From assembly GCF_051903065.1 (NCBI RefSeq), contig NZ_CP178439.1: DNA of 64,000 nucleotides. One strand, written 5' to 3'. The position numbers were made by a program, and so were the translations under genes. Each line of letters begins with the position of its first letter. Within the stretch, counting starts at the first letter, position 1. The notes beneath the pieces are model-generated. The model saw nothing but the letters and a program-made list of their open reading frames with translations, searched no databases and was not told where the DNA came from. This document shows positions 849 to 54,137 of the stretch, piece after piece. This DNA is from Escherichia coli (lineage in GTDB: Bacteria; Pseudomonadota; Gammaproteobacteria; Enterobacterales; Enterobacteriaceae).

Positions 849-1668
849 GGCACTGTTGCAAATAGTCGGTGGTGATAAACTTATCATCCCCTTTTGCTGA
901 TGGAGCTGCACATGAACCCATTCAAAGGCCGGCATTTTCAGCGTGACATCATTCTGTGGGCCGTACGCTGGTACTGCAAATACGGCATCAGTTACCGTGA
1001 GCTGCAGGAGATGCTGGCTGAACGCGGAGTGAATGTCGATCACTCCACGATTTACCGCTGGGTTCAGCGTTATGCGCCTGAAATGGAAAAACGGCTGCGC
1101 TGGTACTGGCGTAACCCTTCCGATCTTTGCCCGTGGCACATGGATGAAACCTACGTGAAGGTCAATGGCCGCTGGGCGTATCTGTACCGGGCCGTCGACA
1201 GCCGGGGCCGCACTGTCGATTTTTATCTCTCCTCCCGTCGTAACAGCAAAGCTGCATACCGGTTTCTGGGTAAAATCCTCAACAACGTGAAGAAGTGGCA
1301 GATCCCGCGATTCATCAACACGGATAAAGCGCCCGCCTATGGTCGCGCGCTTGCTCTGCTCAAACGCGAAGGCCGGTGCCCGTCTGACGTTGAACACCGA
1401 CAGATTAAGTACCGGAACAACGTGATTGAATGCGATCATGGCAAACTGAAACGGATAATCGGCGCCACGCTGGGATTTAAATCCATGAAGACGGCTTACG
1501 CCACCATCAAAGGTATTGAGGTGATGCGTGCACTACGCAAAGGCCAGGCCTCAGCATTTTATTATGGTGATCCCCTGGGCGAAATGCGCCTGGTAAGCAG
1601 AGTTTTTGAAATGTAAGGCCTTTGAATAAGACAAAAGGCTGCCTCATCGCTAACTTTGCAACAGTGCC
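849..1668 (+). mobile_element. tnpA: IS26 copy 1 (820 bp), transposase CDS 912..1616, Gly at residue 184 (KRIIGATLG)
   Basis: Terminal inverted repeats GGCACTGTTGCAAA at 849 and TTTGCAACAGTGCC ending 1668; 234-aa Tnp26 ORF; flanks ggtcaagt / catttatg do not match. Confidence 0.95.
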
Positions 1669-1928
1669 CATTTATGAATGTTCCTGTTATGGCTTATGTT
1701 CAAGAAAGCATTGCCCCTGAAATGATGGGCAAGGTGTTTTCCCTTTTGATGACCGCCATGACTCTTTCTATGCCGATAGGCTTACTTGTTGCAGGTCCGG
1801 TTGTTGAGGTTATAGGTGTTAATACATGGTTTTTCTGGTCTGGTGTTGCGTTGATAGTAAACGCTGTTCTCTGCCGCATTCTGACACGACGCTATGACAA
1901 AGTAACAATGAAACCGCAAGTGGACTGA
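1669..1928 (+). pseudogene. mef(B): C-terminal fragment of an MFS macrolide-efflux protein, Mef(B)-like, 5'-truncated by IS26
   Basis: Hydrophobic C-terminal 86 codons in frame directly after the IS26 end; sul3 nearby fits the known sul3/mef(B) association. Confidence 0.5.
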
Positions 1929-2073
1929 AAAAAGGACCGGGTTGATGATAATTTGTAGTGGTGAGCTTCTGGGAGTACAAAACAAAGTGCTCAAAATTGT
2001 CGGGCTCATGGCGTTTAACGGTATTAATTTCGCTTATAATAATCTTTCTATAATAGCCTAAAGGAGAATATCT

Positions 2074-2937
2074 ATGATACCTAATAGCGAAAATAAAAGA
2101 GTATGGTTTATTACCGGAGCAAGCAAGGGGCTTGGCTATGCTTTTACATGCGCCGCCTTGAAAGCCGGGGATAAAGTTGTTGCAGTTGCAAGGACTATCG
2201 ATAATTTGGCGAAGCTAGAAGAAACATATCAAGAGAGCTTACTGCCATTAAACCTCGATGTTACAGATAGGGAGGCTGTTTTTTCTACGGTTGAAACAGC
2301 AGTTAAACATTTCGGTAGGCTTGATATTGTTGTTAATAATGCGGGTATCATGACTATGGGTATGATTGAAGAACTAAACGAATCCGATGCTCGGAAACTA
2401 ATGGACACAAACTTTTTTGGAGCTCTTTGGGTTTGTCAGGCAGTGATGCCCTATTTGAGGTCGCAGCGTTCTGGACATATCATACAGATTACAAGCATTG
2501 GCGCTATTATCTCGGGTCCGATGTCTGGTATTTACAGTGCAAGTAAATTTGCGCTGGAAGGAATGAGTGAAGCCTTAGCAAAAGAAGCGGAACATTTCGG
2601 AGTGAAACTCACTATGGTGGAACCAGGAGGATATTGGACAGATTTATACACTTCGATGAGTTACAGCAATCCATTAGATTCATACGGTACACTGCGCGAT
2701 GAGCTGGCGAAACAGTATTCCGAAGATTCGGTCGATAGTGATCCTTCCTTGGCAGCGGAAGCCCTTATGAAATTAGTAGCCAGCAATAATCCGCCTTTGA
2801 GGCTTATCCTTGGCAGCATGGTATACGATTTGGCGATGGATACCTTAAAAGCACGGATGGCTACCTGGGAAGAATGGGAAGCTGTTAGCCGTGCATCAGA
2901 AAAGGCTATTCCTGCACCGGAGAGATATGGAGTATAA
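2074..2937 (+). CDS. Short-chain dehydrogenase/reductase (SDR) family oxidoreductase
   Basis: TGASKGLG cofactor motif, NNAG, and YSASK catalytic motif in a 287-aa ORF. Confidence 0.75.
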   Translation: MIPNSENKRVWFITGASKGLGYAFTCAALKAGDKVVAVARTIDNLAKLEETYQESLLPLNLDVTDREAVFSTVETAVKHFGRLDIVVNNAGIMTMGMIEELNESDARKLMDTNFFGALWVCQAVMPYLRSQRSGHIIQITSIGAIISGPMSGIYSASKFALEGMSEALAKEAEHFGVKLTMVEPGGYWTDLYTSMSYSNPLDSYGTLRDELAKQYSEDSVDSDPSLAAEALMKLVASNNPPLRLILGSMVYDLAMDTLKARMATWEEWEAVSRASEKAIPAPERYGV

Positions 2938-2974
2938 TACCAAACATGGTTTTTGAGGCAAGGACGAAACTATC

Positions 2975-3220
2975 ATGAAAATTGAAATTATGGAATATAA
3001 CCCGGATTGGACAAAGAATTTTGAAGAAGAGAAAATAAAATTGCTCCATTTTTTCGGTTCTCATGCCGTAGCCATTGAACATATCGGAAGCACGGCGATA
3101 CCCAATCAACGGGCGAAACCGGTTATAGATATATTTATTGGCGTTTCGCCTTTTGCTGAACTACCTTTTATCAGCGCATTTTTAATGCAAAGGAGTATCA
3201 CCACACTCCGACAGATATGA
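2975..3220 (+). pseudogene. GrpB/UPF0157-like nucleotidyltransferase, N-terminal fragment
   Basis: 81-aa ORF with EHIGSTAIP...KPVIDI motif; about half the expected family length. Confidence 0.35.
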
Positions 3221-3688
3221 CAGGCAGATATTTGTTTGCAAAATATACAAATGAAGTTTGGACCCATAATCTTCTTGCTTTGGTGTAGGTATAATACCCA
3301 AAAACGAAGTTTATGCGGAACAGGATAACACCTCGAAATCGGAGTTTATATGGCTTCGTGGGGGAGTTATGTGTTTGAGCTTTGTCGCATTAACGCGAAT
3401 CAGGGGTTGACGGCAGAAATAGACTGGAATTACACTTCTTGGAGTCGGCGTTGCCGGAAAATTCTGATTGGATTAGTTGTTCGGGGTGCGAAAACAGTCG
3501 TAGTTCGGGGAAAAAACCGAATTTTGACCCAAAACCGCGAAAAACTCGAAATGACAGTTCCTATCAGTTTTCATAATGAATTAAAACAAAAAAATTAGGC
3601 TGCAAAGATAGGGAAAATGTGTCAATTTGCGTAAGTGATAATTAGTCAATTAAGATAAATGCTACTTTTGTAATCAAAGCAAAATGAT

Positions 3689-4480
3689 ATGAGCAAGATT
3701 TTTGGAATCGTAAATATAACCACCGATAGTTTTTCCGATGGAGGACTTTATTTAGATACAGATAAGGCAATTGAGCATGCTCTGCATTTGGTTGAAGATG
3801 GAGCAGATGTGATTGATTTGGGAGCCGCTTCCAGTAATCCTGATACAACTGAAGTGGGCGTTGTGGAAGAAATCAAAAGACTCAAACCTGTCATTAAGGC
3901 TTTAAAAGAAAAAGGCATTTCTATTTCTGTTGATACATTTAAACCTGAGGTTCAGAGTTTTTGCATAGAACAAAAGGTTGATTTTATTAATGATATTCAA
4001 GGTTTTCCTTATCCTGAGATTTATTCAGGCTTGGCAAAGTCAGATTGCAAACTTGTGTTGATGCACTCCGTTCAGCGAATTGGTGCAGCTACTAAAGTTG
4101 AAACGAATCCGGAAGAGGTTTTTACTTCCATGATGGAATTTTTTAAAGAAAGAATTGCTGCTTTAGTTGAGGCTGGTGTAAAGCGTGAACGAATTATTCT
4201 TGATCCGGGTATGGGCTTCTTTTTAGGCTCTAATCCAGAAACATCTATTCTTGTTTTGAAGCGTTTCCCTGAAATTCAAGAAGCTTTTAATTTGCAAGTA
4301 ATGATTGCAGTGTCACGGAAATCATTCTTAGGTAAAATAACTGGAACCGATGTGAAATCTCGTTTAGCACCAACTCTTGCAGCAGAAATGTATGCATACA
4401 AAAAAGGTGCAGATTATCTCCGCACCCATGATGTTAAGTCTTTATCAGATGCCTTGAAAATATCCAAAGCCCTAGGTTAG
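3689..4480 (+). CDS. sul3: Dihydropteroate synthase Sul3 (sulfonamide resistance)
   Basis: 263-aa ORF starting MSKIFGIVNITTDSFSDGG, recognised as Sul3; DHPS fold motifs. Confidence 0.9.
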   Translation: MSKIFGIVNITTDSFSDGGLYLDTDKAIEHALHLVEDGADVIDLGAASSNPDTTEVGVVEEIKRLKPVIKALKEKGISISVDTFKPEVQSFCIEQKVDFINDIQGFPYPEIYSGLAKSDCKLVLMHSVQRIGAATKVETNPEEVFTSMMEFFKERIAALVEAGVKRERIILDPGMGFFLGSNPETSILVLKRFPEIQEAFNLQVMIAVSRKSFLGKITGTDVKSRLAPTLAAEMYAYKKGADYLRTHDVKSLSDALKISKALG

Positions 4481-4701
4481 TTTTATTTTTTTAGCTTTCT
4501 AAATGAATATGCTATACTTGCTCTGAAGTTGTGTTGGCGTACTTGACTTAGGTCTGGATCTTTCGAACTGTTACTAAGAGGGTAATCATAGCCAAACATA
4601 AACTGGAAATGTCCTAATTCTAAACCTGTTCCAATACCTACACTATGGTGATGCTGCCAACTTACTGATTTAGTGTATGATGGTGTTTTTGAGGTGCTCC
4701 A

Positions 4702-4977
4702 GTGGCTTCTGTTTCTATCAGCTGTCCCTCCTGTTCAGCTACTGACGGGGTGGTGCGTAACGGCAAAAGCACCGCCGGACATCAGCGCTATCTCTGCTCT
4801 CACTGCCGTAAAACATGGCAACTGCAGTTCACTTACACCGCTTCTCAACCCGGTACGCACCAGAAAATCATTGATATGGCCATGAATGGCGTTGGATGCC
4901 GGGCAACCGCCCGCATTATGGGCGTTGGCCTCAACACGATTTTCCGCCATTTAAAAAACTCAGGCCGCAGTCGGTAA
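4702..4977 (+). CDS. insA: IS1 InsA
   Basis: 91-aa [43 protein letters not shown], zinc-finger InsA. Confidence 0.85.
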
Positions 4978-5399
4978 CCTCGCGCATACAGCCGGGCAGT
5001 GACGTCATCGTCTGCGCGGAAATGGACGAACAGTGGGGATACGTCGGGGCTAAATCGCGCCAGCGCTGGCTGTTTTACGCGTATGACAGGCTCCGGAAGA
5101 CGGTTGTTGCGCACGTATTCGGTGAACGCACTATGGCGACGCTGGGGCGTCTTATGAGCCTGCTGTCACCCTTTGACGTGGTGATATGGATGACGGATGG
5201 CTGGCCGCTGTATGAATCCCGCCTGAAGGGAAAGCTGCACGTAATCAGCAAGCGATATACGCAGCGAATTGAGCGGCATAACCTGAATCTGAGGCAGCAC
5301 CTGGCACGGCTGGGACGGAAGTCGCTGTCGTTCTCAAAATCGGTGGAGCTGCATGACAAAGTCATCGGGCATTATCTGAACATAAAACACTATCAATAA
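4896..5399 (+). CDS. insB: IS1 InsB reading frame (expressed as InsAB' by -1 frameshift)
   Basis: Overlapping downstream ORF inside IS1. Confidence 0.75.
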
Positions 5400-5442
5400 G
5401 TTGGAGTCATTACCGGAGAATTGTATCATTAACAGTCTAGTT

Positions 5443-6108
5443 CTAACGACTACCACTTTTAAGTATGTATTGAGCCAGTTTTATATTCAGGCACACCATA
5501 TTGCACTCTAGCTCTTTCATCATTCTTGAAGAACTCTTAATTAAGTATTCTTCAAGTGGGCCAGCATATGCCCCTGATGTCACGATCGTTAGTTGCGTAA
5601 GAGGATGAGTCAAACTCTCAATGCCCTTCAGGATGTCATTCTGGACAGCAGCAATATAAACAGGCGAAGCCGCAATCAAATATTCATCATTCGGGCTGGA
5701 CTGCATTAACTGGCTTATAGTTGCGCAACGGTTATGCTTACCTAGTGATTTTGTGATGGCTTTCCACCAGAGATCATGCCTGAATGGTACTTGATGAAAT
5801 GTCGCCTCGTAAGAGGGCACCCGATCTCGACTATTTAAAAACCCCATCCCGGCAGAGATTATCCACAACTCCAGATTTCTGGTTGAGTTTAAAATTTCCT
5901 TTGCCGTAGACCAGTGATTACCTGAATACAAGGACAATGCCGGTACCGCCTGATTACTTCTGGCGTCGTCTACAATGTTACTCCAGGCATATGCTGCGTC
6001 GTCCGGGGTTTGTTTTGGATCTATGTCCAATGTCGGCCAGACGTGGCCCTGATGATTCTTGCCCTTTGTACAGGAAGTGATTAAGTGTACTGAGCGTTCA
6101 GAGAACAT
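5443..6108 (-). CDS. Hypothetical protein (221 aa)
   Basis: Six-frame ORF in AT-rich backbone; no family recognised. Confidence 0.5.
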   Translation of the reverse strand: MFSERSVHLITSCTKGKNHQGHVWPTLDIDPKQTPDDAAYAWSNIVDDARSNQAVPALSLYSGNHWSTAKEILNSTRNLELWIISAGMGFLNSRDRVPSYEATFHQVPFRHDLWWKAITKSLGKHNRCATISQLMQSSPNDEYLIAASPVYIAAVQNDILKGIESLTHPLTQLTIVTSGAYAGPLEEYLIKSSSRMMKELECNMVCLNIKLAQYILKSGSR

Positions 6109-6165
6109 TATCTTCCTTACATACCCATAGAACAGCTTTCTAAGAACGGTGGGCTCGCCTGAAAA

Positions 6166-6546
6166 TTACAAATCAGCCCCTTTCACGGCATCATTTTGAT
6201 TCTTCGCGTCTGCCCCCAGTAAGATGACCGGTTTTCTGCATGACAGTGTTATTCCTAACAAACGCAACACAAAACCACGCCAGCCAGAGCAAATTTTTTC
6301 ATTTGCTGCGTAAAGCCTATTGTTTTCTCTTTTAAGCTTCGCCCACTCGTTACAGAGGGTAACATCATCAAGCGCTGTTATATGCTTCGCCTCACCTTCG
6401 ACGATAACGGTATGGATACCGTATGCTGTAAATCTCATACTATTTTCCAGAACCCAGTTGCGGTATTCGTCGAGTCCACCTTCGGAACCGGTAGCTCTGC
6501 GCCACATTTCAATTTGCTTGTGTGATGGGTCAAGTGTACTTGTCAT
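6166..6546 (-). CDS. Hypothetical protein (126 aa)
   Basis: ORF upstream of and co-oriented with 5443..6108; divergent from the 7189 operon. Confidence 0.5.
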   Translation of the reverse strand: MTSTLDPSHKQIEMWRRATGSEGGLDEYRNWVLENSMRFTAYGIHTVIVEGEAKHITALDDVTLCNEWAKLKRENNRLYAANEKICSGWRGFVLRLLGITLSCRKPVILLGADAKNQNDAVKGADL

Positions 6547-6814
6547 TGAAGCCTCGTCTCAGCGATAACGCTTGAAATAGCCCGCTTTGGTCATCATGAA
6601 ATTAGCCATCTGACTGGCGATTTGATTGTATCTTACTCATAGTGCCCTACCTATAGGTTAAAAAGGGGCATTTTCGCTTTATAGCGTGTTCAGCAGCATC
6701 AATCCTCCCAAGAAAGGCTGGCTTATTAAGCCGGTCCATCATTTTCTGTATATCTCTCATCAATTTTTATATCCGCCCTGGAGTGCACCGTTCAAGCACA
6801 CCGATTAGGCAGAT

Positions 6815-6875
6815 AGTCACTAGTTAACTCTTTACTAGTGACTAAATTCCATTGATATACGTGACAACGTCACGT
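6815..6875. promoter_or_regulatory. Two perfect palindromes (AGTCACTAGT-N9-ACTAGTGACT and ACGTGAC-AAC-GTCACGT) in the divergent intergenic region
   Basis: Read directly at 6815..6843 and 6859..6875; a third palindrome AGTAAAG-C-CTTTACT lies at 7084..7098. Confidence 0.35.
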
Positions 6876-7188
6876 CATGAAAGCTTATAAATGCCTATTT
6901 TTCATACAATGGGATTTAATTAGGAGTAAATCCCATAGGCTTACATAAGGATGACAATTAAAAGCGTTAAATATCAACCAGATAGAATGATTACCCCCAA
7001 TTAATGGGCTCATCACATTATTTCACTGGCTGGGGTTATTGCTGGCATATCTGAAAGTGCTAATATGTTAGTCATTAGTAATTAGTAAAGCCTTTACTAA
7101 ACGCGTTTCTACGTAAATTCTATAGGTTTTATAGTGTCCTACCTTTGCTCAAATCAAAATGTTCTGACATACCAAAATGGAGTGTAAA

Positions 7189-8007
7189 ATGACTCAAAAC
7201 CAGGGTTCTGAGCCAGTACCGGCGAGCCGGACAGGGCAGCTCATCAGCGCCCGGGATATGGCCATGCAGAAATTCGAAGAAGGGATGCGGTTAATCTCGG
7301 AAGCGTCGGAACTGTGCGGTCTCTCTCTCTTCACCAGCAGAATTATGCAGCCCAACGCATTTGGTCTTCCGTCGTCACTGGATCGCACCATCGAGGAGGG
7401 GCGTAAGGAAATTGACCGTAAAACGTGGAAAAGGCTCTTTGAAGAAACAGGTATGGACCGGTACTGGAACCATAAGCAAAAAGAAGCCTTTAACGAATCC
7501 CTTCGTACGGATCCGCCCGTCGCTTCCCTGGAGATTGTTAAGGGAACATTACAGCATGCACTGGCTAACAGACGAGACACCCTTGCAGAAGGTTTCGTTG
7601 ATGTTCTCAACAAGCTTGACCGAAGTTTCAAAAGCAATGCCAGGCAATATACAATGCCAAAAAAGCTTGTTCTTCGGGGGATTTTTCCTGGTGTGAACGT
7701 GCTGAGGTACAACGGTTTCTCGCAGGACAATCACTTTTGTTTACGCGACTTTGAGAATATTGTATGCATCTGTTCTGATACTCCAACACCTGCAACCGGC
7801 GGTGGGCTGAGTATGGTCGACAGGCTGACGGCCATGAGAAATACAGAATTCACAGGCGAGGTCAGTGATGAGAATGGCTGGCGGTGTCGCCTGTTTGAGA
7901 ATGGAAACGTTCATATTTGCATCGACAGTATCTCGCTTCTGAATGCTCTGAACGATCTTATCAGCATATATTTTGCAAACCAGCTTCCGGCCGCAGGAAA
8001 AAAATGA
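7189..8007 (+). CDS. Hypothetical protein (about 272 aa)
   Basis: ORF 7177..8007; ATG at 7189 has GGAG 6 nt upstream; stop overlaps next start (ATGA at 8004..8007). Confidence 0.55.
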   Translation: MTQNQGSEPVPASRTGQLISARDMAMQKFEEGMRLISEASELCGLSLFTSRIMQPNAFGLPSSLDRTIEEGRKEIDRKTWKRLFEETGMDRYWNHKQKEAFNESLRTDPPVASLEIVKGTLQHALANRRDTLAEGFVDVLNKLDRSFKSNARQYTMPKKLVLRGIFPGVNVLRYNGFSQDNHFCLRDFENIVCICSDTPTPATGGGLSMVDRLTAMRNTEFTGEVSDENGWRCRLFENGNVHICIDSISLLNALNDLISIYFANQLPAAGKK

Positions 8008-9209
8008 TGATTGAAAATGATAAAGAAAAAAGCCTGAACGATGCTACCCCGCCAGAGGTGCAGAATGACATCCGCAGCGAATCCACTGAAAAATCAAAGG
8101 AAATGGGTCGTTCAAGGTACTCATCTATCGCGATGATCGATTACTTCAATGCAATCGAACGTCTGTGCAAAGAGAAAGAAATTAACCCGGAAAATATCGA
8201 TCTGAGCTTCAAAGTTCACTGGCTCAGAAACGCTGTTGGCGGCTCGTTTGCAAGGTCACAGGAGATGTTCGCGGAGTACCAGAAGTATGTTAAAGAGGTT
8301 CCTGAAGAGGCCCGTTACCTGGATATACCCGATGAGGTAAAGGTTGCACTCGGCGATATTATCTCGTACATCACCTGGCACTACCGTAGAAGCTATACCG
8401 CAATACAGAATGATAGTGTTAAAAAAGCTGAAGCACGTAGCATGCAGCTGGAGGAGGAGGTAACGCAGCTGTTACAGCGGCTTGAGCAAAGCGCTACCGA
8501 TATGGATGAGCTGAAACTTGAGAATCAGGCACTACAGGGTCGATTAGAGATCCGGGACAGTACCGTCAAGGAGTTAGAAACAAGGCTGAATGTTGCCGAA
8601 GCAGAACTCGAAACCTGCCATCACCAGTTAGATAGCACACGGCATGAATTGAGCCTCGCACAGCAGTCAAATGACTCACTCTCCCAGCAACTGGCTGAAC
8701 GTAAAACAGAGATCGCTGGTCACCTTGAATATCAAAAAAAGCTGAACGAAGAGATCAACACGCAGCGTTCTGATAACGCCGGTCTTTCCAGACAATGCGA
8801 CCAGTTAAGTCAGACTGTGTCAGATACAAAGGCAGAGAGGGACAGGTTTGAACAGGAATTGATTGCTGCACAGAACCTTTGTACTGAGCTGAAAAGTGCA
8901 CTGTCCGGGAAAGAGGGTGACCTGGTGGCGGTGAATGCCGAGCTTACTGAACTCCATAAACTAAACGAGTCGCTGAGCGCCGACCTGAATAAAGTAACTT
9001 TGGTCAGCCAGGGCTATGAAGCGGAAGTGGCTGAACAAAGCAATGAACTCAAAACGCTCCAGGCCAAAGTAATGAAGCTGGAAGCTACCCTGGAGGCGGA
9101 GAAAACAATCTCAGAATCCCTAAAAGGCACCATTGATACATTAACTGGTGCAATGGCAGGGGGAGGTACTGGAAAGTCAAAACAGCCGCGTAGCAGAAAA
9201 ACATCATGA
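8004..9209 (+). CDS. Coiled-coil protein (401 aa), KfrA-like architecture
   Basis: Globular N-terminus then ~300 aa of heptad-like E/Q/L-rich sequence; translationally coupled to upstream gene. Confidence 0.55.
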   Translation: MMIENDKEKSLNDATPPEVQNDIRSESTEKSKEMGRSRYSSIAMIDYFNAIERLCKEKEINPENIDLSFKVHWLRNAVGGSFARSQEMFAEYQKYVKEVPEEARYLDIPDEVKVALGDIISYITWHYRRSYTAIQNDSVKKAEARSMQLEEEVTQLLQRLEQSATDMDELKLENQALQGRLEIRDSTVKELETRLNVAEAELETCHHQLDSTRHELSLAQQSNDSLSQQLAERKTEIAGHLEYQKKLNEEINTQRSDNAGLSRQCDQLSQTVSDTKAERDRFEQELIAAQNLCTELKSALSGKEGDLVAVNAELTELHKLNESLSADLNKVTLVSQGYEAEVAEQSNELKTLQAKVMKLEATLEAEKTISESLKGTIDTLTGAMAGGGTGKSKQPRSRKTS

Positions 9210-9272
9210 TAAATGAAGCCAGGTTGATACACTTCTCTGCATCCCCTGGCACATAAGAACTTCTGCGGACAT

Positions 9273-9476: not shown

Positions 9477-9488
9477 TTTTTCTCCATT

Positions 9489-44440: not shown

Positions 44441-44545
44441 TTTTCTTCCTACGATAGAATATTGCTCGGATTATCGACATTTTTTCCCAAGGCTTTAACT
44501 GTCTTTCGCTACTTGGATAAATGGCTCTTCCTCCACTGTTCTGCT

Positions 44546-45055: not shown

Positions 45056-45182
45056 CTGTTACGTGTTCTTCCTGTGATGATCATGGTCGCTAGTATAATT
45101 CTCCGGCTGACTGGACATACAGCATTTTCTGTCCAAGATTAATAACCTCGAACTGCAACACAATGCCGCAGATGATGCAAAG

Positions 45183-46031
45183 GGGGAGCCCGCAGAATTC
45201 GGAAAAAATCGTACGCTAAGGTTTTCCGGGCATCCGTAAGGGCCGAAACTTCCCGTCTTCCAGTCTGCGGCTCTGCCGCCAGACGTAATCGCCGGTTAGG
45301 TTGATGTGCTCCCAGCCCAGCGGCGACAGGAATTGCAGCAGCTCGCCGTCCACCGGCTTGCCGGCCTCGACCAACCCCTGGGTGGCGCGTTCCAGGTACA
45401 CCGTGTTCCACAGCACGATAGCCGCCGTCACCAGGTTGAGGCCGCTGGCCCGGTAGCGCTGCTGCTCGAAGCTCCGATCCCTGATTTCCCCAAGGCGGTT
45501 GAAGAACACCGCCCTGGCCAGCGAGTTGCGCGCCTCACCTTTGTTCAGGCCGGCATGCACGCGGCGGCGCAGTTCAACACTTTGCAGCCAGTCCAGGATG
45601 AACAGCGTGCGCTCGATCCGGCCCAGCTCGCGCAGGGCCACGGCCAGTCCGTTCTGGCGCGGGTAGCTGCCGAGCTTGCGCAGCATCAGCGAGGCGGTGA
45701 CGGTGCCCTGCTTGATCGAGCTGGCCAGGCGCAGGATGTCGTCCCAGTGGGCACGCACGTGCTTGATGTTCAGGGTGCCGCCGATCAGCGGGCGCAACGT
45801 CGGGTAGGCTTGCACGCCCTGCGGCACGTACAGCTTGGTTTCGCCGAGGTCGCGGATGCGCGGCGCGAAGCGGAAGCCTAGCAGGTGCATCAGGGCAAAG
45901 ACGTGATCGGTGAAGCCGGCCGTGTCGGTGTAGTGCTCCTCGATCCGCAGGTCGGACTCGTGGTACAGCAGGCCGTCGAGCACATAGGTGGAATCGCGGA
46001 CGCCGACATTCACCACGCGGGTGCTGAACGG
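45183..46031 (-). mobile_element. tnpA: Second Tn1721-type transposon end: 38-bp IR (45183..45220) plus tnpA 3' fragment, truncated by IS26 52 bp further 3' in tnpA than the copy at 17879..18779
   Basis: Identical IR and TnpA C-terminus; retained tnpA is 52 bp shorter than in the first copy. Confidence 0.85.
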
Positions 46032-46851
46032 GGCACTGTTGCAAATAGTCGGTGGTGATAAACTTATCATCCCCTTTTGCTGATGGAGCTGCACATGAAC
46101 CCATTCAAAGGCCGGCATTTTCAGCGTGACATCATTCTGTGGGCCGTACGCTGGTACTGCAAATACGGCATCAGTTACCGTGAGCTGCAGGAGATGCTGG
46201 CTGAACGCGGAGTGAATGTCGATCACTCCACGATTTACCGCTGGGTTCAGCGTTATGCGCCTGAAATGGAAAAACGGCTGCGCTGGTACTGGCGTAACCC
46301 TTCCGATCTTTGCCCGTGGCACATGGATGAAACCTACGTGAAGGTCAATGGCCGCTGGGCGTATCTGTACCGGGCCGTCGACAGCCGGGGCCGCACTGTC
46401 GATTTTTATCTCTCCTCCCGTCGTAACAGCAAAGCTGCATACCGGTTTCTGGGTAAAATCCTCAACAACGTGAAGAAGTGGCAGATCCCGCGATTCATCA
46501 ACACGGATAAAGCGCCCGCCTATGGTCGCGCGCTTGCTCTGCTCAAACGCGAAGGCCGGTGCCCGTCTGACGTTGAACACCGACAGATTAAGTACCGGAA
46601 CAACGTGATTGAATGCGATCATGGCAAACTGAAACGGATAATCGGCGCCACGCTGGGATTTAAATCCATGAAGACGGCTTACGCCACCATCAAAGGTATT
46701 GAGGTGATGCGTGCACTACGCAAAGGCCAGGCCTCAGCATTTTATTATGGTGATCCCCTGGGCGAAATGCGCCTGGTAAGCAGAGTTTTTGAAATGTAAG
46801 GCCTTTGAATAAGACAAAAGGCTGCCTCATCGCTAACTTTGCAACAGTGCC
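46032..46851 (+). mobile_element. tnpA: IS26 copy 8, transposase CDS 46095..46799, Gly at residue 184
   Basis: Both IRs present; flanks do not match. Confidence 0.95.
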
Positions 46852-47050
46852 GCGCGACGAGCAGCAGCACCAGGAGCAGAAGCACGTCGAGAAAAAGCAA
46901 CAGCAGATCGAGCAGCGCCCACGGCGGGCCGCTCGCATCGGATAAGTCGAAAAATCCGGCTAAAGTGGCCGAGCTGCACATCAGGCCGCGCGGTTTTCCT
47001 CCCTGATCGCCGGCGCGGTTTCTTCCTCCCTGAACCGCATGCAGACTTGC

Positions 47051-47080
47051 CGCCTCGGACACCCCGAGGCGGTTTTTTTT
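47051..47080 (+). terminator. Rho-independent terminator
   Basis: GCCTCGG-ACACC-CCGAGGC hairpin followed by GGTTTTTTTT. Confidence 0.5.
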
Positions 47081-47092
47081 CGCCTCGCTCGA

Positions 47093-47306
47093 GCATCGCC
47101 GCATCCGACGATGCCGAGACGACCAGGCCGCGCACGTCGAGCTGCAGCATCGCCATTGCCGACGATGGCACCAGGTCGCCGGCGGTGGCCACCGACCTCG
47201 AGCTCGCATCGCCACATCCGACGATGCGCGCCGGCGTCGACCATCGCCAGGTCTGACGATGGCGGCCGCCCTGCCCTGGATCTCGCATCGCCATTTCTGG
47301 CGATGA
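47093..47306. repeat. Five imperfect 22-bp palindromic repeats (CATCGCC-N6-GACGATG type); candidate res/accessory recombination or iteron-like sites
   Basis: Copies at 47093, 47147, 47206, 47241, 47285 with spacings 54/59/35/44 bp, upstream of the resolvase gene. Confidence 0.5.
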
Positions 47307-47430
47307 GATCCACGGAGCGGCCATTTAGACCCGCCAATAACGACCCGGCCAAGATAAATCGCATGACGGCCTTTTTGGCCGGGGGTAGCATGACCGGACA
47401 CTTTGCGTATGCCCAAAGGAGCCCGCAAGT

Positions 47431-48168
47431 ATGCGCAGGACGAAGCCAGTAGCCGCGCCGATGGTGGCGCGGGTCTATCTGCGCGTCAGCACCGACGCGC
47501 AGGACTTGGAACGCCAAGAGGCGATCACTACGGCCGCGAAGGCCGCCGGCTACTACGTCGCCGGCATCTACCGTGAGAAGGCATCCGGCGCACGCGCCGA
47601 CCGGCCTGAGCTGCTGCGCATGATCGGCGACCTACAGCCCGGCGAGGTGGTCATTGCCGAGAAGATCGACCGCATCAGCCGCCTACCTTTGCCCGAGGCC
47701 GAGCGCCTGGTGGCCTCGATACAGGCCAAAGGCGCACGCCTGGCCGTCCCTGGCGTGGTCGATCTATCCGACCTGGCGGCCGAGGCCCAGGGCGTCGCCA
47801 AGATCGTGCTGGAAGCCGTGCAGATCATGCTTTTTCGCCTGGCCTTGCAGATGGCCCGCGACGACTACGAGGACAGGCGCGAACGCCAGCGCCAAGGCAT
47901 TGAGTTGGCCCGCCAGGCCGGGCGGTACAAGGGCCGCCGTGCTGATCCGAAGCGCCGCGCCCAAGTTGTCGCGCTGCGCAAGTCCGGCTACAGCATCAAC
48001 AAGACCGCCGAGCTGGCCGGGTACAGTGCGGCCCAGGTGAAACGGATATGGGCCGAGGTCAGCCAGGCCGAAGCGAAGCAGCACGGCGCGTTCGTGGAGG
48101 ACGCATTGACGGAAGCCGATGCCCTGGCCGCTGTCGGCCAGGATGAGCGCCAGGAGGAAAGGGCATGA
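47431..48168 (+). CDS. Serine recombinase/resolvase
   Basis: N-terminal catalytic motif VYLRVSTDAQDLERQ and C-terminal HTH; GC-rich. Confidence 0.8.
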   Translation: MRRTKPVAAPMVARVYLRVSTDAQDLERQEAITTAAKAAGYYVAGIYREKASGARADRPELLRMIGDLQPGEVVIAEKIDRISRLPLPEAERLVASIQAKGARLAVPGVVDLSDLAAEAQGVAKIVLEAVQIMLFRLALQMARDDYEDRRERQRQGIELARQAGRYKGRRADPKRRAQVVALRKSGYSINKTAELAGYSAAQVKRIWAEVSQAEAKQHGAFVEDALTEADALAAVGQDERQEERA

Positions 48169-48482
48169 AGAAGCCGAACCAAGACGACGAGCCGTTTTTC
48201 ATCACCGAGGAGATTGCGGCCGAAATGATCGCCGGCGGCTATGAGTTCGAGCTGCCGCCCATTCCTTGCACCATCCGCCTACGCGACGTGCTGGAGCGCA
48301 TGACCGATGCTGAGCTAGCATTGCAGCCGGGCGAGATCGCCGACCAGGAGCGTGAACGCTGCCGGCGCAAGCCGTGTTCAACCTCATGATCTGGTCATGG
48401 TATTTTTCATGGCACTGAGCCTGATAGTTCTTGCAAATTGTTGTCACTAAAGGGTTTTGTGTGCTTGTTTACAATCGAGTGG

Positions 48483-50100
48483 GAGTGACGGGCACTGGCT
48501 GGCAATGTCTAGCAACGGCAGGCATTTCGGCTGAGGGTAAAAGAACTTTCCGCTAAGCGATAGACTGTATGTAAACACAGTATTGCAAGGACGCGGAACA
48601 TGCCTCATGTGGCGGCCAGGACGGCCAGCCGGGATCGGGATACTGGTCGTTACCAGAGCCACCGACCCGAGCAAACCCTTCTCTATCAGATCGTTGACGA
48701 GTATTACCCGGCATTCGCTGCGCTTATGGCAGAGCAGGGAAAGGAATTGCCGGGCTATGTGCAACGGGAATTTGAAGAATTTCTCCAATGCGGGCGGCTG
48801 GAGCATGGCTTTCTACGGGTTCGCTGCGAGTCTTGCCACGCCGAGCACCTGGTCGCTTTCAGCTGTAAGCGTCGCGGTTTCTGCCCGAGCTGTGGGGCGC
48901 GGCGGATGGCCGAAAGTGCCGCCTTGCTGGTTGATGAAGTACTGCCTGAACAACCCATGCGTCAGTGGGTGTTGAGCTTCCCGTTTCAGCTGCGTTTCCT
49001 GTTTGCCAGCCGGCCCGAGATCATGGGGTGGGTGCTGGGCATCGTTTACCGCGTCATTGCCACGCACCTGGTCAAGAAAGCGGGCCATACCCACCAAGTG
49101 GCCAAGACGGGCGCGGTCACCCTGATCCAGCGTTTTGGATCGGCGCTCAATCTGAATGTTCACTTCCACATGCTGTTTCTCGACGGTGTGTATGTCGAGC
49201 AATCCCACGGCTCAGCGCGTTTCCGCTGGGTCAAGGCGCCGACCAGCCCAGAGCTCACCCAGCTGACGCACACCATCGCCCACCGGGTGGGTCGCTATCT
49301 GGAACGGCAAGGCCTGCTGGAACGGGATGTCGAAAACAGCTATCTGGCCTCGGATGCGGTGGATGACGACCCGATGACACCCCTGCTGGGGCACTCGATC
49401 ACTTACCGTATCGCTGTCGGTTCACAGGCGGGGCGAAAGGTGTTCACTTTGCAAACTCTGCCGACCAGTGGTGATCCGTTCGGTGACGGGATTGGCAAGG
49501 TAGCCGGGTCCAGCCTGCACGCCGGCGTGGCGGCCAGGGCCGATGAACGCAAGAAGCTCGAACGGCTGTGCCGGTACATCAGCCGCCCGGCGGTATCCGA
49601 GAAGCGGCTGTCGTTAACACGAGGCGGCAACGTGCGCTACCAGCTCAAGACGCCGTACCGGGACGGCACCACGCACGTCATTTTCGAACCATTGGATTTC
49701 ATTGCAAGGCTGGCCGCCCTGGTACCGAAGCCCAGAGTCAACCTAACCCGCTTCCACGGGGTGTTCGCACCCAACAGTCGGCACCGGGCGTTGGTCACGC
49801 CGGCAAAACGGGGCAGGGGCAACAAGGTCAGGGTGGCTGATGAACCGGCAACACCAGCACAACGGCGAGCGTCGATGACATGGGCGCAACGGCTCAAGCG
49901 TGTTTTCAATATCGACATCGAGACCTGCAGCGGCTGCGGCGGCGCCATGAAAGTCATCGCCTGCATTGAAGACCCTATAGTGATCAAGCAGATCCTTGAT
50001 CACCTGAAGCACAAAGCCGAAACCAGCGGGACCAGGGCGTTACCCGAAAGCCGGGCGCCACCGGCTGAGCTGCTCCTGGGTCTGTTTGACTGACGAGCCT
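48483..50100 (+). mobile_element. ISCR2 (IS91-like rolling-circle element), transposase CDS 48600..50093; element boundaries approximate
   Basis: 497-aa IS91-family transposase; a second partial copy of the first ~300 bp at 52767..53072 defines the 5' boundary. Confidence 0.75.
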
Positions 50101-50123
50101 GAAGGCCAACGATACCAATCAAA

Positions 50124-51008
50124 ATGCTGCGTTCACAGCGCCGCGGCAGGGATCCGCCGTGCTGGTTGTCGGAAAAGGAGCCGCTAGTGGGAAAGAGGAG
50201 GGTAAATTTTCAGCGTTGCTGGCTCCCCGTCAGCCGGATTGGGTTGCATCGCAGGGGTGTCGAAAGAGTCAACTGCGGTCCAAAGCTGTTGGACTTGGGT
50301 GAAAAGGGCGTTTATTCTTCCTATACGTGCCGCGTTCCAGGCGGCGACTATGAGGGCTATGTCGATGCCCATGTGCGCCGGCTGGAGGCGCTACGCCGGG
50401 CCGGTATCGTCGAGCGGATCGACGCCGACCAATGGCGCATCCCCAATGATCTGGTCAGCCGTGCCGCCGCCCATGACGCCGGCCGAGACAGTCAGGCCAG
50501 CGTTCGCGTCCTTTCCCCGGTCGATCTGAACAAACAGATCGGATCGGACGGCGCGACCTGGCTGGACCGGCGGCTGATCCACGGCGAGACGGCCGACCTT
50601 GCGCCAACCGGCTTCGGGCAACAAGTCCGCGAAGCCATGGACCAGCGCCGCGAGCACCATATCGAACAGGGCGACGCCACCCGCAGCCGGGACAGCCGCG
50701 TCTTCTACCGGCGCAACCTTCTCGCCATCCTGCGGGAGCGCGAGGTAGCCGGCGTCGGATCGGATATGGCTTTGAGTAAGGGCCTGCCGTTCCGCGCCGC
50801 CACGGACGGCGAGAGCGTCAGCGGCAAGTTTACCGGAACCGTGCATCTATCGAGCGGCAAGTTCGCCGTGGTCGAGAAATCCCATGAGTTCACCCTTGTC
50901 CCGTGGCGGCCGATCATCGACCGCCAACTCGGCCGCGAGGTTATGGGCATCGTGCAGGGCGGGTCGGTGTCGTGGCAGTTAGGGCGGCAGAGGGGGCTGG
51001 AACGCTGA
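50124..51008 (+). pseudogene. Relaxase-like (VirD2-like) fragment commonly found between ISCR2 and floR
   Basis: ORF in the position described for the virD2 relic of floR loci; identity not verified. Confidence 0.35.
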
Positions 51009-51088
51009 GTGCGCCCATGCCGCATTGCGAAGCAAAAGATAATCGGATAAAATGTAGCAATTCATATTCGTAAGCGTGGAGTAATCAG

Positions 51089-51148
51089 ATGGGAAATTCC
51101 AAGTCAGCAGACAAGTAAGCCGCAACAACCAGTATTGTTGTTGCGGCG
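51089..51148 (+). promoter_or_regulatory. floR leader: 9-codon peptide MGNSKSADK plus GCCGCAACAACC...GTTGTTGCGGCG hairpin
   Basis: Read directly; parallels the cmlA leader at 32605..32669. Confidence 0.5.
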
Positions 51149-51224
51149 CTCTGTAAGGCTAGTCTCATCTGATTGCTGACGAGCAGACGTCGCCCGGTAT
51201 TCCTTAATCGAGGGTTGATTCGTC

Positions 51225-52439
51225 ATGACCACCACACGCCCCGCGTGGGCCTATACGCTGCCGGCAGCACTGCTGCTGATGGCTCCTTTCGACATCCTCG
51301 CTTCACTGGCGATGGATATTTATCTCCCTGTCGTTCCAGCGATGCCCGGCATCCTGAACACGACGCCCGCTATGATCCAACTCACGTTGAGCCTCTATAT
51401 GGTGATGCTCGGCGTGGGCCAGGTGATTTTTGGTCCGCTCTCAGACAGAATCGGGCGACGGCCAATTCTACTTGCGGGCGCAACGGCTTTCGTCATTGCG
51501 TCTCTGGGAGCAGCTTGGTCTTCAACTGCACCGGCCTTTGTCGCTTTCCGTCTACTTCAAGCAGTGGGCGCGTCGGCCATGCTGGTGGCGACGTTCGCGA
51601 CGGTTCGCGACGTTTATGCCAACCGTCCTGAGGGTGTCGTCATCTACGGCCTTTTCAGTTCGATGCTGGCGTTCGTGCCTGCGCTCGGCCCTATCGCCGG
51701 AACATTGATCGGCGAGTTCTTGGGATGGCAGGCGATATTCATTACTTTGGCTATACTGGCGATGCTCGCACTCCTAAATGCGGGTTTCAGGTGGCACGAA
51801 ACCCGCCCTCTGGATCAAGTCAAGACGCGCCGATCTGTCTTGCCGATCTTCGCGAGTCCGGCTTTTTGGGTTTACACTGTCGGCTTTAGCGCCGGTATGG
51901 GCACCTACTTCGTCTTCTTCTCGACGGCTCCCCGTGTGCTCATAGGCCAAGCGGAATATTCCGAGATCGGATTCAGCTTTGCCTTCGCCACTGTCGCGCT
52001 TGTAATGATCGTGACAACCCGTTTCGCGAAGTCCTTTGTCGCCAGATGGGGCATCGCAGGATGCGTGGCGCGTGGGATGGCGTTGCTTGTTTGCGGAGCG
52101 GTCCTGTTGGGGATCGGCGAACTTTACGGCTCGCCGTCATTCCTCACCTTCATCCTACCGATGTGGGTTGTCGCGGTCGGTATTGTCTTCACGGTGTCCG
52201 TTACCGCGAACGGCGCTTTGGCAGAGTTCGACGACATCGCGGGATCAGCGGTCGCGTTCTACTTCTGCGTTCAAAGCCTGATAGTCAGCATTGTCGGGAC
52301 ATTGGCGGTGGCACTTTTAAACCGTGACACAGCGTGGCCCGTGATCTGTTACGCCACGGCGATGGCGGTACTGGTTTCGTTGGGGCTGGTGCTCCTTCGG
52401 CTCCGTGGGGCTGCCACCGAGAAGTCGCCAGTCGTCTAA
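51225..52439 (+). CDS. floR: Florfenicol/chloramphenicol efflux MFS transporter FloR
   Basis: 404-aa protein MTTTRPAWAYTLPAALLLMAPFDILASLAMDIYLPVVPAMPGILNTTPAMIQ... Confidence 0.9.
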   Translation: MTTTRPAWAYTLPAALLLMAPFDILASLAMDIYLPVVPAMPGILNTTPAMIQLTLSLYMVMLGVGQVIFGPLSDRIGRRPILLAGATAFVIASLGAAWSSTAPAFVAFRLLQAVGASAMLVATFATVRDVYANRPEGVVIYGLFSSMLAFVPALGPIAGTLIGEFLGWQAIFITLAILAMLALLNAGFRWHETRPLDQVKTRRSVLPIFASPAFWVYTVGFSAGMGTYFVFFSTAPRVLIGQAEYSEIGFSFAFATVALVMIVTTRFAKSFVARWGIAGCVARGMALLVCGAVLLGIGELYGSPSFLTFILPMWVVAVGIVFTVSVTANGALAEFDDIAGSAVAFYFCVQSLIVSIVGTLAVALLNRDTAWPVICYATAMAVLVSLGLVLLRLRGAATEKSPVV

Positions 52440-52466
52440 CCGACGACTGGTAGCAGGCCCGCTCCG

Positions 52467-52772
52467 ATGCGGCGCACTAACCATCGAAACCTCGTGAATG
52501 TCGGTATCCTGTCTGGCAGGATACCGCTCATTTCCCTTGTTCAGTTCATCGCCGTCGCCGAGCATCTGAATTTTCGGCATGCGGCCAAGGCACTTGGTAT
52601 CAGCCAGTCGAGCGTCAGCGCGCGTGTGAAAGCGCTGGAGGATAACCTTGGTGTCCTGCTATTTGAGCGCCATGCGCGGGGCGTTCGGCTAACAGACGCA
52701 GGCAGGCACTTCATGGAGCGTGTCACGGCGGGTGTCGATCAACTCGATCACGCAGTGAAGACCGCGGAGTGA
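52467..52772 (+). pseudogene. LysR-family regulator, N-terminal HTH fragment, truncated by partial ISCR2
   Basis: FIAVAEHLNFRHAAKALGISQSSVSARVKALE HTH; ends where ISCR2 homology begins. Confidence 0.6.
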
Positions 52773-53072
52773 CGGGCACTGGCTGGCAATGTCTAGCAAC
52801 GGCAGGCATTTCGGCTGAGGGTAAAAGAACTTTCCGCTAAGCGATAGACTGTATGTAAACACAGTATTGCAAGGACGCGGAACATGCCTCATGTGGCGGC
52901 CAGGACGGCCAGCCGGGATCGGGATACTGGTCGTTACCAGAGCCACCGACCCGAGCAAACCCTTCTCTATCAGATCGTTGACGAGTATTACCCGGCATTC
53001 GCTGCGCTTATGGCAGAGCAGGGAAAGGAATTGCCGGGCTATGTGCAACGGGAATTTGAAGAATTTCTCCAA
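52767..53072 (+). mobile_element. Partial ISCR2 (5' ~300 bp only)
   Basis: Matches 48483..48790; diverges after GAATTTCTCCAA. Confidence 0.8.
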
Positions 53073-53317
53073 AGCCCGCGACGCAGCGCCGGCAGGCAGA
53101 GCAAGTAGAGGGCAGCGCCTGCAATCCATGCCCACCCGTTCCACGTTGTTATAGAAGCCGCATAGATCGCCGTGAAGAGGAGGGGTCCGACGATCGAGGT
53201 CAGGCTGGTGAGCGCCGCCAGTGAGCCTTGCAGCTGCCCCTGACGTTCCTCATCCACCTGCCTGGACAACATTGCTTGCAGCGCCGGCATTCCGATGCCA
53301 CCCGAAGCAAGCAGGAC
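53073..53317 (-). pseudogene. tet(A): tet(A) internal 3' fragment fused to partial ISCR2 and cut by IS26
   Basis: Reverse complement matches tetA positions ~23047..23294 of this window. Confidence 0.8.
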
Positions 53318-54137
53318 GGCACTGTTGCAAATAGTCGGTGGTGATAAACTTATCATCCCCTTTTGCTGATGGAGCTGCACATGAACCCATTCAAAGGCCG
53401 GCATTTTCAGCGTGACATCATTCTGTGGGCCGTACGCTGGTACTGCAAATACGGCATCAGTTACCGTGAGCTGCAGGAGATGCTGGCTGAACGCGGAGTG
53501 AATGTCGATCACTCCACGATTTACCGCTGGGTTCAGCGTTATGCGCCTGAAATGGAAAAACGGCTGCGCTGGTACTGGCGTAACCCTTCCGATCTTTGCC
53601 CGTGGCACATGGATGAAACCTACGTGAAGGTCAATGGCCGCTGGGCGTATCTGTACCGGGCCGTCGACAGCCGGGGCCGCACTGTCGATTTTTATCTCTC
53701 CTCCCGTCGTAACAGCAAAGCTGCATACCGGTTTCTGGGTAAAATCCTCAACAACGTGAAGAAGTGGCAGATCCCGCGATTCATCAACACGGATAAAGCG
53801 CCCGCCTATGGTCGCGCGCTTGCTCTGCTCAAACGCGAAGGCCGGTGCCCGTCTGACGTTGAACACCGACAGATTAAGTACCGGAACAACGTGATTGAAT
53901 GCGATCATGGCAAACTGAAACGGATAATCAACGCCACGCTGGGATTTAAATCCATGAAGACGGCTTACGCCACCATCAAAGGTATTGAGGTGATGCGTGC
54001 ACTACGCAAAGGCCAGGCCTCAGCATTTTATTATGGTGATCCCCTGGGCGAAATGCGCCTGGTAAGCAGAGTTTTTGAAATGTAAGGCCTTTGAATAAGA
54101 CAAAAGGCTGCCTCATCGCTAACTTTGCAACAGTGCC
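53318..54137 (+). mobile_element. tnpA: IS26 copy 9, transposase CDS 53381..54085, Asn at residue 184
   Basis: Both IRs present; flanks do not match. Confidence 0.95.

Follow-up and report, generated by a model that had tools for sequence, protein, structure and literature searches.

The IS26 array described here is most probably the product of two replicative inversions by IS26-v1, the Asn184 form of IS26, within the resistance region of an IncHI2 plasmid; we put the probability of this whole two-step explanation at roughly 85%. The window, meaning the entire 64-kb stretch of Escherichia coli DNA that was analysed, is, to judge by its flanking backbone, the multidrug-resistance region of such a plasmid, with the replicon genes lying outside it. 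In the proposed history, four Gly184 copies and two Asn184 copies would have been inherited with resistance modules common to other IncHI2 plasmids, and one Asn184 copy, placed between floR-lysR and strA-strB-tet(A) in relatives, would then, in the lineage leading to this plasmid, have undergone two or more intramolecular events. The two events are called steps A and B as labels only, either order being possible. Each event adds a copy, so that the Asn184 count would rise from two to four, and each leaves the two former flanks of an IS on different copies, so that no copy would retain a direct target-site duplication.

A search for the 14-bp terminal repeat, combined with BLAST using the first copy, revealed eight complete 820-bp IS26 copies in the window, all eight carrying the inverted repeat GGCACTGTTGCAAA at both ends, 820 bp apart. 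Alignment of the copies confirmed the four Gly184 copies (starts 849, 33026, 35026 and 46032) and four Asn184 copies (18780, 25590, 29956 and 53318) of a preliminary description, the four sequences within each class being mutually identical. The sole difference between the classes is GG>AA at IS26 nt 613-614, which replaces GGC (Gly) by AAC (Asn) at codon 184 and leaves the two Tnp26 proteins 233/234 identical. The 234-aa Tnp26 ORF is intact in every complete copy and encodes a DDE transposase (PF13610 DDE_Tnp_IS240, 164-166 bits). IS26 DNA identical to that of the window is annotated in relatives as 'IS6-like element IS26 family transposase', the Gly184 copies corresponding to WP_001067855.1 and the Asn184 copies to WP_001067858.1, i.e. 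IS26-v1/IS15-delta-1, in agreement with the earlier suggestion that the mixed alleles may represent more than one IS26 lineage; two such lineages co-reside in the window. It is common for one replicon to hold both IS26 alleles, and published cases already exist, some of them from this plasmid family. All complete copies lie on the plus strand except 25590 and 35026. Both alleles are present, as described, but 'interleaved' overstates an order that reads G, N, N, N, G, G, stub, G, N along the window. The ninth, partial copy comprises 301 bp (IS26 nt 1-301) and ends at 39411, one position beyond the end first given; since it stops at about codon 79, short of codon 184, its allele is indeed indeterminable. 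The features are as follows.

849-1668, plus strand: IS26 Gly184, flanked by the end of the lnu(F) cassette and by truncated mef(B)-sul3.
18780-19599, plus strand: IS26-v1 Asn184, 2-nt form; left junction in the 3' end of Tn1721 tnpA', right junction at truncated strA.
19600-25589: segment T, with truncated strA, aph(6)-Id, tetR, tet(A), EamA/pecM and a Tn1721 tnpA' fragment.
25590-26409, minus strand: IS26-v1 Asn184; its right flank is the inverted target repeat.
26410-26417: 8-bp target duplication CTTCATCA, reverse complement of 54138-54145; the target is single in relatives.
26410-53317: inverted 26.9-kb segment, bounded by copies 25590 and 53318.
29956-30775, plus strand: IS26-v1 Asn184, inherited; junction of backbone and truncated intI1.
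33026-33845, plus strand: IS26 Gly184, between truncated cmlA and the aph(3')-Ia segment; whole junction pair common to pTL012-1.
35026-35845, minus strand: IS26 Gly184, between aph(3')-Ia and IS4321; both junctions common to pXJW9B277-HI2-N.
39111-39411, plus strand: IS26 stub consisting of the left end (nt 1-301), with Tnp26 codons 1 to about 79.
46032-46851, plus strand: IS26 Gly184, between a Tn1721 tnpA 3' fragment and the resolvase-ISVsa3-floR module.
53318-54137, plus strand: IS26-v1 Asn184; left junction (tet(A) fragment after lysR) inherited, right junction in the dsbA-family gene.
54138-54145: 8-bp target duplication TGATGAAG, reverse complement of 26410-26417.
54138-54843, minus strand: 5' part of the dsbA-family gene of the IncHI2 backbone, severed by the transposition; the 3' part is at 26410-26521, plus strand.

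The inverted 26.9-kb segment contains, in order, the dsbA 3' end, umuC, umuD, IS26-v1, an intI1 fragment-dfrA14-arr-2-cmlA fragment, IS26, aph(3')-Ia, IS26, IS4321, a ramA/glutathione-synthase block, IS26, ISVsa3-floR-lysR and a tet(A) fragment.

Comparison of left with right 8-bp flanks found no direct 8-bp duplication at any copy, as had been reported. When the 17 flanks were compared all against all in both orientations (272 comparisons, edit distances up to 2 also being allowed), a single exact match was obtained, against about 0.004 expected by chance (272/65,536): the right flanks of copies 25590 (CTTCATCA, 26410-26417) and 53318 (TGATGAAG, 54138-54145) are reverse complements of each other. 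The window does hold an 8-bp IS26 target duplication, in inverted configuration and split between copies 25590 and 53318, which the preliminary description had missed. Two near matches within an edit distance of 2 (849R/35026L and 18780L/29956L) were discarded as chance-level, about four being expected.

Sequence comparison shows that step B was an intramolecular replicative inversion that split the dsbA-family gene. The empty site was rebuilt as rc(26410-26809)+54146-54545, with the 8-mer present once, and spans umuC and the DsbA-family gene. Of the PLSDB plasmids, 940 match it over at least 80% of its length; those listed are uninterrupted at 100% identity, and every plasmid examined with this site is IncHI2. 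In both pPK5074-MCR1 and pTL012-1, the alignments of window 26410 onwards and 54138 onwards overlap by exactly the 8 bp of the target, and 26410-53317 is inverted relative to both plasmids, between the oppositely oriented copies 25590 (minus) and 53318 (plus). One repeat of the 8-mer lies inside the inverted segment and one outside, and the target is uninterrupted in relatives. An Asn184 copy attacked TGATGAAG in the backbone dsbA-family gene by intramolecular replicative transposition in trans, flipping 26.9 kb (26410-53317), adding one IS26-v1 copy and duplicating the target in inverted orientation. The junctions 25589/IS/26410 and 53317/IS/54138 are both absent from 72,556 PLSDB plasmids, and the former also from 5,426 complete E. 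coli genomes.

Alternatively, the inversions might have been made by RecA-dependent homologous recombination between pre-existing inverted IS26 copies. A flip of this type does happen in these plasmids: the inverted Gly184 copies 35026 and 46032 enclose segment 35846-46031, whose orientation in pTL012-1 is opposite to that in the window, with copy number unchanged. For step B, however, the dsbA-family gene is free of IS26 in the relatives covering the rebuilt site, and the window has one extra IS copy as well as the inverted 8-bp target duplication; since neither arises by recombination alone, this alternative is refuted for step B. The rise of Asn184 copies from two in pTL012-1 to four in the window also speaks against it, and overall we judge it improbable, with a chance near one in ten.

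Replicative inversion would also account for the second extra Asn184 copy, which we infer to stem from step A, an inversion of 19600-25589 followed by a 66-bp deletion. Segment T is inverted with respect to the backbone relative to three relatives and has inverted Asn184 copies at both ends, and relatives have, between it and the backbone, 58 bp of Tn1721 tnpA' that are lacking between 25589 and 18779 and occur nowhere else in the window. In step A, an Asn184 copy would have transposed in trans, by an intramolecular replicative reaction, into the Tn1721 tnpA' remnant, inverting the strB-tet(A) segment and gaining one copy; an adjacent 66-bp deletion would then have removed one of the two inverted target repeats, the lost one, belonging next to copy 25590, being ACCCGAAG. 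The need for this additional deletion counts against step A, as does the fact that no target duplication survives, which makes it indistinguishable from homologous recombination. Junction 18779/IS/19600 is absent from the 72,556 PLSDB plasmids, and the predicted intermediate 25589/IS26/rc(53317) was not found in PLSDB either, which counts against the two-step scheme.

Comparison with related plasmids, proposed in the preliminary description, bore out the reconstruction: the layout predicted for the state before the inversions is found in the sister plasmid pTL012-1 (NZ_CP123952.1), which holds two Asn184 copies, four Gly184 copies and the same stub. Its order is backbone, 58 bp, rc(T), IS26-v1, rc(floR module), IS26, K block, IS26, aphA1, IS26, rc(integron remnant), IS26-v1, rc(umuDC) and intact dsbA. 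It is a cousin and not the parent: a third difference, silent and at nt 459 (G>A), marks its Asn184 copies, and the 35846-46031 segment is flipped between it and the window. Window 14168-18779 and 54138-64000 are 99.99-100% identical to pTL012-1, and window 1-18779 and 54138-64000 are 100% identical to pXJW9B277-HI2-N and pPK5074-MCR1; trhH and traG-N genes occur in these three plasmids and in pCFSAN086837, all four being typed as IncHI2A / MOBH. Relatives share every Gly184 junction, as well as the 29956 copy, with the same allele each time. Both junctions of the 849 copy are shared at 100% with pCFSAN086837 and pXJW9B277-HI2-N, the right junction of the 18780 copy (truncated strA) is inherited, and the stub occurs with the same flanks in two relatives (L002 and L004). 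For the 29956 copy, junctions and allele are 100% identical over 1,501 bp in the top 12 PLSDB records listed, and 80 records cover at least 80% of the query. Among the complete-copy junctions tested, those absent from PLSDB all adjoin Asn184 copies. The missing direct duplications reflect secondary, recent IS26-mediated rearrangement. Cointegrate formation, conservative targeting and deletion had been put forward as the origin of the array in contrast to simple insertion; IS26-mediated rearrangement holds up, the events open to reconstruction are intramolecular replicative inversions with a small deletion, the inversions not being on that list, and simple insertion is no IS26 route at all, IS26 being described as forming cointegrates only (PMC8477213). 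The aph(3')-Ia/Klebsiella-like block between Gly184 copies may possibly have arrived via cointegrate formation or conservative targeting.

The allele pattern might instead owe its form to gene conversion among co-resident IS26 copies and not to descent of two lineages. The nt-459 change is present in both orthologous Asn184 copies of pTL012-1 and lacking in both pPK5074-MCR1 copies and all four window copies, a pattern that looks concerted, and its sharing by the two pTL012-1 copies hints at concerted conversion among IS26 copies. At codon 184, however, the Gly/Asn state is identical at every junction shared between the window and four relatives, and duplication fully accounts for the two extra Asn184 copies with no need of conversion at this codon; we consider conversion as the source of the Gly/Asn pattern very unlikely. 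Least probable of all is that the junctions or allele differences are assembly or polishing artefacts of nine near-identical 820-bp repeats, for although IS26 arrays are classically prone to misjoins and the unusual junctions occur in no other record searched (PLSDB and, for one, complete E. coli genomes), a repeat misjoin cannot produce an inverted duplication of 8 bp of unique backbone, the four copies within each allele class are identical, and the alleles recur at orthologous junctions in independent assemblies (the 12 top records listed; L002, L003 and L004). The same allele at the same junction in independently assembled relatives indicates that the alleles are not sequencing noise, contrary to the possibility of sequencing or assembly error raised at the outset.

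The window copies resemble known IS26/IS26-v1 (IS15-delta-1, Tnp26 G184N; IS6/IS26 family) in their 820-bp length, 14-bp repeats and 234-aa DDE transposase. IS15-delta-1 differs from IS26 by 3 bp (PMC6807381), whereas the Asn184 copies of the window differ by 2 bp and lack the silent nt-459 change; as they encode the IS26-v1 protein, the 2-bp form is a nucleotide subtype. pTL012-1 has a three-difference form by virtue of nt 459 G>A, which is presumptively the third IS15-delta-1 position. The Asn184 allele was found in about 4,100 PLSDB plasmids, a spread sample of which suggests that the 2-nt form is a minority subtype among them.

Mixed IS26/IS26-v1 arrays without duplications are already known for IncHI2 plasmids: according to PMC9019673, the IncHI2 plasmid pOYZ4 and its chromosomally integrated form MRCP in Salmonella have about ten IS26/IS26-v1 copies, one truncated, and, as in the window, no direct duplication at any of them. 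The same paper describes modules common to the window (IS26-v1-strAB-tetAR-truncated Tn1721; ISVsa3-floR; IS26-aph(3')-Ia-IS26-truncated Tn1721-IS4321) and infers inverse intramolecular replicative transposition from inverted 8-bp repeats; there the pOYZ4 inversion is credited to standard IS26, whereas the inversions reconstructed here involve IS26-v1 copies, and the dsbA target site and junctions of the window are not described in the passages of that paper that were consulted. The right flank of copy 46032 (GCGCGACG) is the reverse complement of CGTCGCGC, the 8-mer given there for the flank of pOYZ4 'copy 6'; no flank anywhere in the window matches the 7-bp partner of CGTCGCGC reported for pOYZ4. 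For the IS6 family, PMC7986276 describes how intramolecular replicative transposition produces deletions when it acts in cis and inversions when it acts in trans, direct repeats being lost; the window inversion does not differ mechanistically from this trans inversion and is one more natural example.

The Asn184 form is reported to be more active, with higher cointegrate formation (Pong et al. 2019, cited by both PMC8477213 and PMC9019673). A tentative proposal, which we think has perhaps a quarter's chance of being right, is that the Asn184 allele produced all the rearrangements peculiar to this plasmid, namely two inversions that each added a copy and one adjacent deletion. Starting from two Asn184 copies among six complete ones, the chance that Asn184 copies made both of two events is about (2/6)(3/7)=0.14, and that they made all of three about 0.06, so that the pattern fits higher activity without being significant (p about 0.06-0.14), two or three events being no proof. 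Both Tnp26 forms are present in the cell and either protein could be the catalyst, and as all events trace to one copy, a position effect is possible. If true, the proposal would be natural within-molecule evidence that IS26-v1 is hyperactive in intramolecular reactions too, contrary to the speculation in PMC9019673 that IS26-v1 favours inter-replicon cointegrates and standard IS26 the intramolecular work.

The structure itself is of an ordinary, already documented type, and the importance of its reconstruction is small and mostly one of bookkeeping. It illustrates that an IS26 array free of duplications can be decoded by comparing flanks across copies in both orientations and then turning to a sister plasmid, and it adds one well-supported natural case in which IS26-v1 reshaped an IncHI2 resistance region and severed a dsbA-family gene of the backbone.

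The window corresponds to an IncHI2 plasmid's resistance region. Its IS26 copies were located by searching for the terminal repeat GGCACTGTTGCAAA and by BLAST with the first copy as query. Eight complete 820-bp copies were found (named by start position: 849, 18780, 25590, 29956, 33026, 35026, 46032 and 53318), together with a partial copy, or stub, matching IS26 nt 1-301 at 39111-39411, one base beyond the end given in the preliminary description. Copies 25590 and 35026 lie on the minus strand and all others on the plus strand. The other contents are:

1-5400: lnu(F), IS26, truncated mef(B), sul3, IS1
5443 to about 17865: IncHI2 backbone
about 17866-18779: Tn1721 tnpA' remnant
19600-25589: truncated strA, aph(6)-Id, tetR, tet(A), Tn1721 tnpA' fragment
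26410-26521, plus strand: DsbA-family gene 3' part (IncHI2 backbone)
26567-28244: umuC and umuD
30776-33025: intI1 fragment, dfrA14, arr-2, cmlA fragment
34087-34902: aph(3')-Ia
36049-37053: IS4321
37471-45055: ramA / glutathione-synthase / AAA-ATPase block
45179-46031: second Tn1721 tnpA fragment
46852-53317: resolvase, ISVsa3, floR, lysR, tet(A) fragment
54138 onward: IncHI2 transfer backbone
54138-54843, minus strand: DsbA-family gene 5' part (IncHI2 backbone)

As had been described, the complete copies carry two alleles, four encoding Gly184 (849, 33026, 35026 and 46032; standard IS26) and four Asn184 (18780, 25590, 29956 and 53318; IS26-v1). All four copies within each set are identical, and the sole difference between the sets is GG>AA at IS26 nt 613-614, so that codon 184 of the transposase (234 aa) reads GGC (Gly) in the first set and AAC (Asn) in the second; both forms match the IS240/IS26-type DDE domain. 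The alleles had been called interleaved, a loose wording for two alleles that are indeed both present in the order G, N, N, N, G, G, stub, G, N. IS26-v1 (formerly IS15-delta-1, G184N) is a described and widespread variant, with 1,385 transposases against 6,266 of IS26 in a plasmid survey which also states that the two frequently share a replicon (bioRxiv 10.1101/2024.02.20.581145), and an exact 80-bp Asn184 segment was found in 4,144 PLSDB plasmids.

None of the eight complete copies (0/8) has equal left and right 8-bp flanks, in line with the earlier statement that no copy carries its own target-site duplication. The claim that the flanks of all copies differ is true for direct repeats, but it missed an inverted match. 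Comparison of 17 flanks, all against all in both orientations, gave one exact match, against a chance expectation of ~0.004: the right flanks of copies 25590 (CTTCATCA, 26410-26417) and 53318 (TGATGAAG, 54138-54145) are reverse complements of each other. Both copies are Asn184 and they are oppositely oriented; such an inverted pair is what one expects intramolecular replicative transposition in trans to leave, a mechanism reviewed for the IS6 family (PMC7986276). The empty site was rebuilt by joining the reverse complement of 26410-26809 to 54146-54545 with the 8-mer present once (800 bp). At least 80% of it is covered by 940 PLSDB plasmids, and the matches listed are all 100% identical and uninterrupted, spanning the umuC end and the DsbA-family gene. 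In the IncHI2 relatives pPK5074-MCR1 and pTL012-1 (NZ_CP123952.1), the alignments of the window from 26410 and from 54138 share exactly the 8 bp. The uninterrupted site and the 8-bp overlap therefore show that 26410-53317 was inverted and the dsbA-family gene cut (Step B). This backbone gene is whole in all relatives examined and split by the inversion in the window. Misassembly as the source of the unusual junctions and alleles is very unlikely: a false join across repeats cannot leave 8 bp of unique backbone duplicated in inverted orientation, the four copies of each class agree, and four independent assemblies show the same alleles at the orthologous junctions.

For comparison with relatives, the window was divided into segments B1 (1-18779), T (19600-25589), U (26418-29955), I (30776-33025), K (33846-46031), F (46852-53317) and D (54146 onward), with v for an Asn184 and g for a Gly184 copy.

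Segment layouts
Window: B1 v T v(-) t' U v I g K g F v t D
pPK5074-MCR1: D' t' U v I g F v T 58bp B1'
pTL012-1: B1 58bp T' v(-) F' g(-) [35846-46031] g aphA1 g(-) I' v(-) U' t D

The layout of pTL012-1, in which dsbA is intact and two copies of the Asn184 allele and four of the Gly184 allele accompany the stub also present in the window, is the ancestral order that had been predicted from the inverted duplication before this plasmid was found. Segment 35846-46031, between the inverse Gly184 copies 35026 and 46032, is opposite in pTL012-1 and the same way round in another relative, pXJW9B277-HI2-N; homologous recombination between the two oppositely oriented IS26 copies seems to have flipped it, adding no copy and no duplication. 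A 217-bp stretch on the right of copy 46032 (46852-47068), present in the window, pXJW9B277-HI2-N and pTL012-1, is missing at the equivalent IS26 of pPK5074-MCR1, apparently through an IS26-adjacent deletion.

Starting from a pTL012-1-type layout, three changes would lead to the window, with Steps A and B in either order. In Step A, the v copy between F and T would have attacked the Tn1721 tnpA' remnant, inverting T (19600-25589) and adding one copy, after which a 66-bp adjacent deletion (58 bp plus one 8-bp repeat) would have removed one target repeat; we infer both. The 58 bp between T and B1 in the relatives are absent from the whole window, and the predicted intermediate (25589|IS26|reverse complement of 53317) was not found in PLSDB. 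In Step B, which is shown, the same copy lineage attacked TGATGAAG in dsbA, inverting 26.9 kb and adding another copy. The left flank of the ancestral single copy (tet(A) fragment after lysR) now lies beside copy 53318 and its right flank (truncated strA) beside copy 18780, with both flanks of copy 25590 new; this parting of the old flanks explains why 18780, 25590 and 53318 lack direct duplications and why the Asn184 copies number four.

The junctions 18779|IS|19600, 25589|IS|26410 and 53317|IS|54138 each occur in 0/72,556 PLSDB plasmids, and 25589|IS|26410 in 0/5,426 complete E. coli genomes. Copy 29956 is shared, its two junctions and Asn184 allele being 100% identical over 1,501 bp in the best 12 records listed, with at least 80% of the query covered in 80 PLSDB records. 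The junctions of 849, 35026, 46032 and the stub are common to the window and pXJW9B277-HI2-N, and the junction pair of 33026 to the window and pTL012-1, with the same alleles. Every complete-copy junction tested and absent elsewhere thus borders an Asn184 copy, which agrees with the higher activity that Pong et al. 2019 reported for the G184N form (as cited in PMC8477213 and PMC9019673) and is not significant: if two of six complete copies were Asn184 at the outset, all-Asn184 events have a chance probability of ~0.14 for two events and ~0.06 for three, and all reconstructed events trace to one single copy.

The Asn184 copies in the window show two nucleotide differences from IS26, with nt 459 (window 19238 in copy 18780) unchanged, and both orthologous copies of pTL012-1 (10671-11490 and 34034-34853) carry a third, silent G>A there. 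This three-change form would fit IS15-delta-1, described as '3 bp different' from IS26 (PMC6807381). When a 176-bp query over nt 450-625 was run against a spread sample of PLSDB (60 records), 13/60 matched at 100%, 38/60 at 99.4% and 9/60 at 98.9%, suggesting that the 2-nt form is a minority subtype, the best match in roughly a quarter of Asn184-bearing plasmids. Since both orthologous copies differ together at nt 459 between the sister plasmids, IS26 copies may have undergone gene conversion or replacement.

The products of 37471-45055 are a glutathione-synthase-like protein, a RamA-family regulator, a DinQ-like toxin, an AAA ATPase and an M14 peptidase, and the block looks like captured Klebsiella/Enterobacter-like chromosomal DNA; part of it adjoins the stub (39111-39411), cut at nt 301. 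The Tn1721 tnpA 3' end (853 bp) occurs twice in direct orientation (17866-18717 and 45179-46031), a 251-bp tet(A) 3' fragment forms an inverted pair (23046-23296 and 53067-53317) beside copy 53318, and a 307-bp direct repeat (48482-48788 and 52766-53072) lies on both sides of the ISVsa3-floR-lysR module. These repeats are additional substrates for homologous recombination besides IS26, and PMC9019673 reports that two truncated Tn1721 copies recombined in a related plasmid.

According to the same paper, the related IncHI2 plasmid pOYZ4/MRCP has ten IS26/IS26-v1 copies, one truncated and none with a direct duplication, and an inverse intramolecular replicative transposition was deduced there from inverted 8-bp repeats. 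The 8-mer CGTCGCGC given in that paper, read as its reverse complement, equals the right flank of copy 46032. The authors also speculate that IS26-v1 tends to form inter-replicon cointegrates and standard IS26 makes intramolecular changes, whereas the intramolecular inversions reconstructed here involve IS26-v1. The observation of the preliminary description stands, and its reading of an array built by cointegrate formation, conservative targeting and deletion is supported in part and sharpened. The array is an ordinary, further case of a situation already documented in the same plasmid family.
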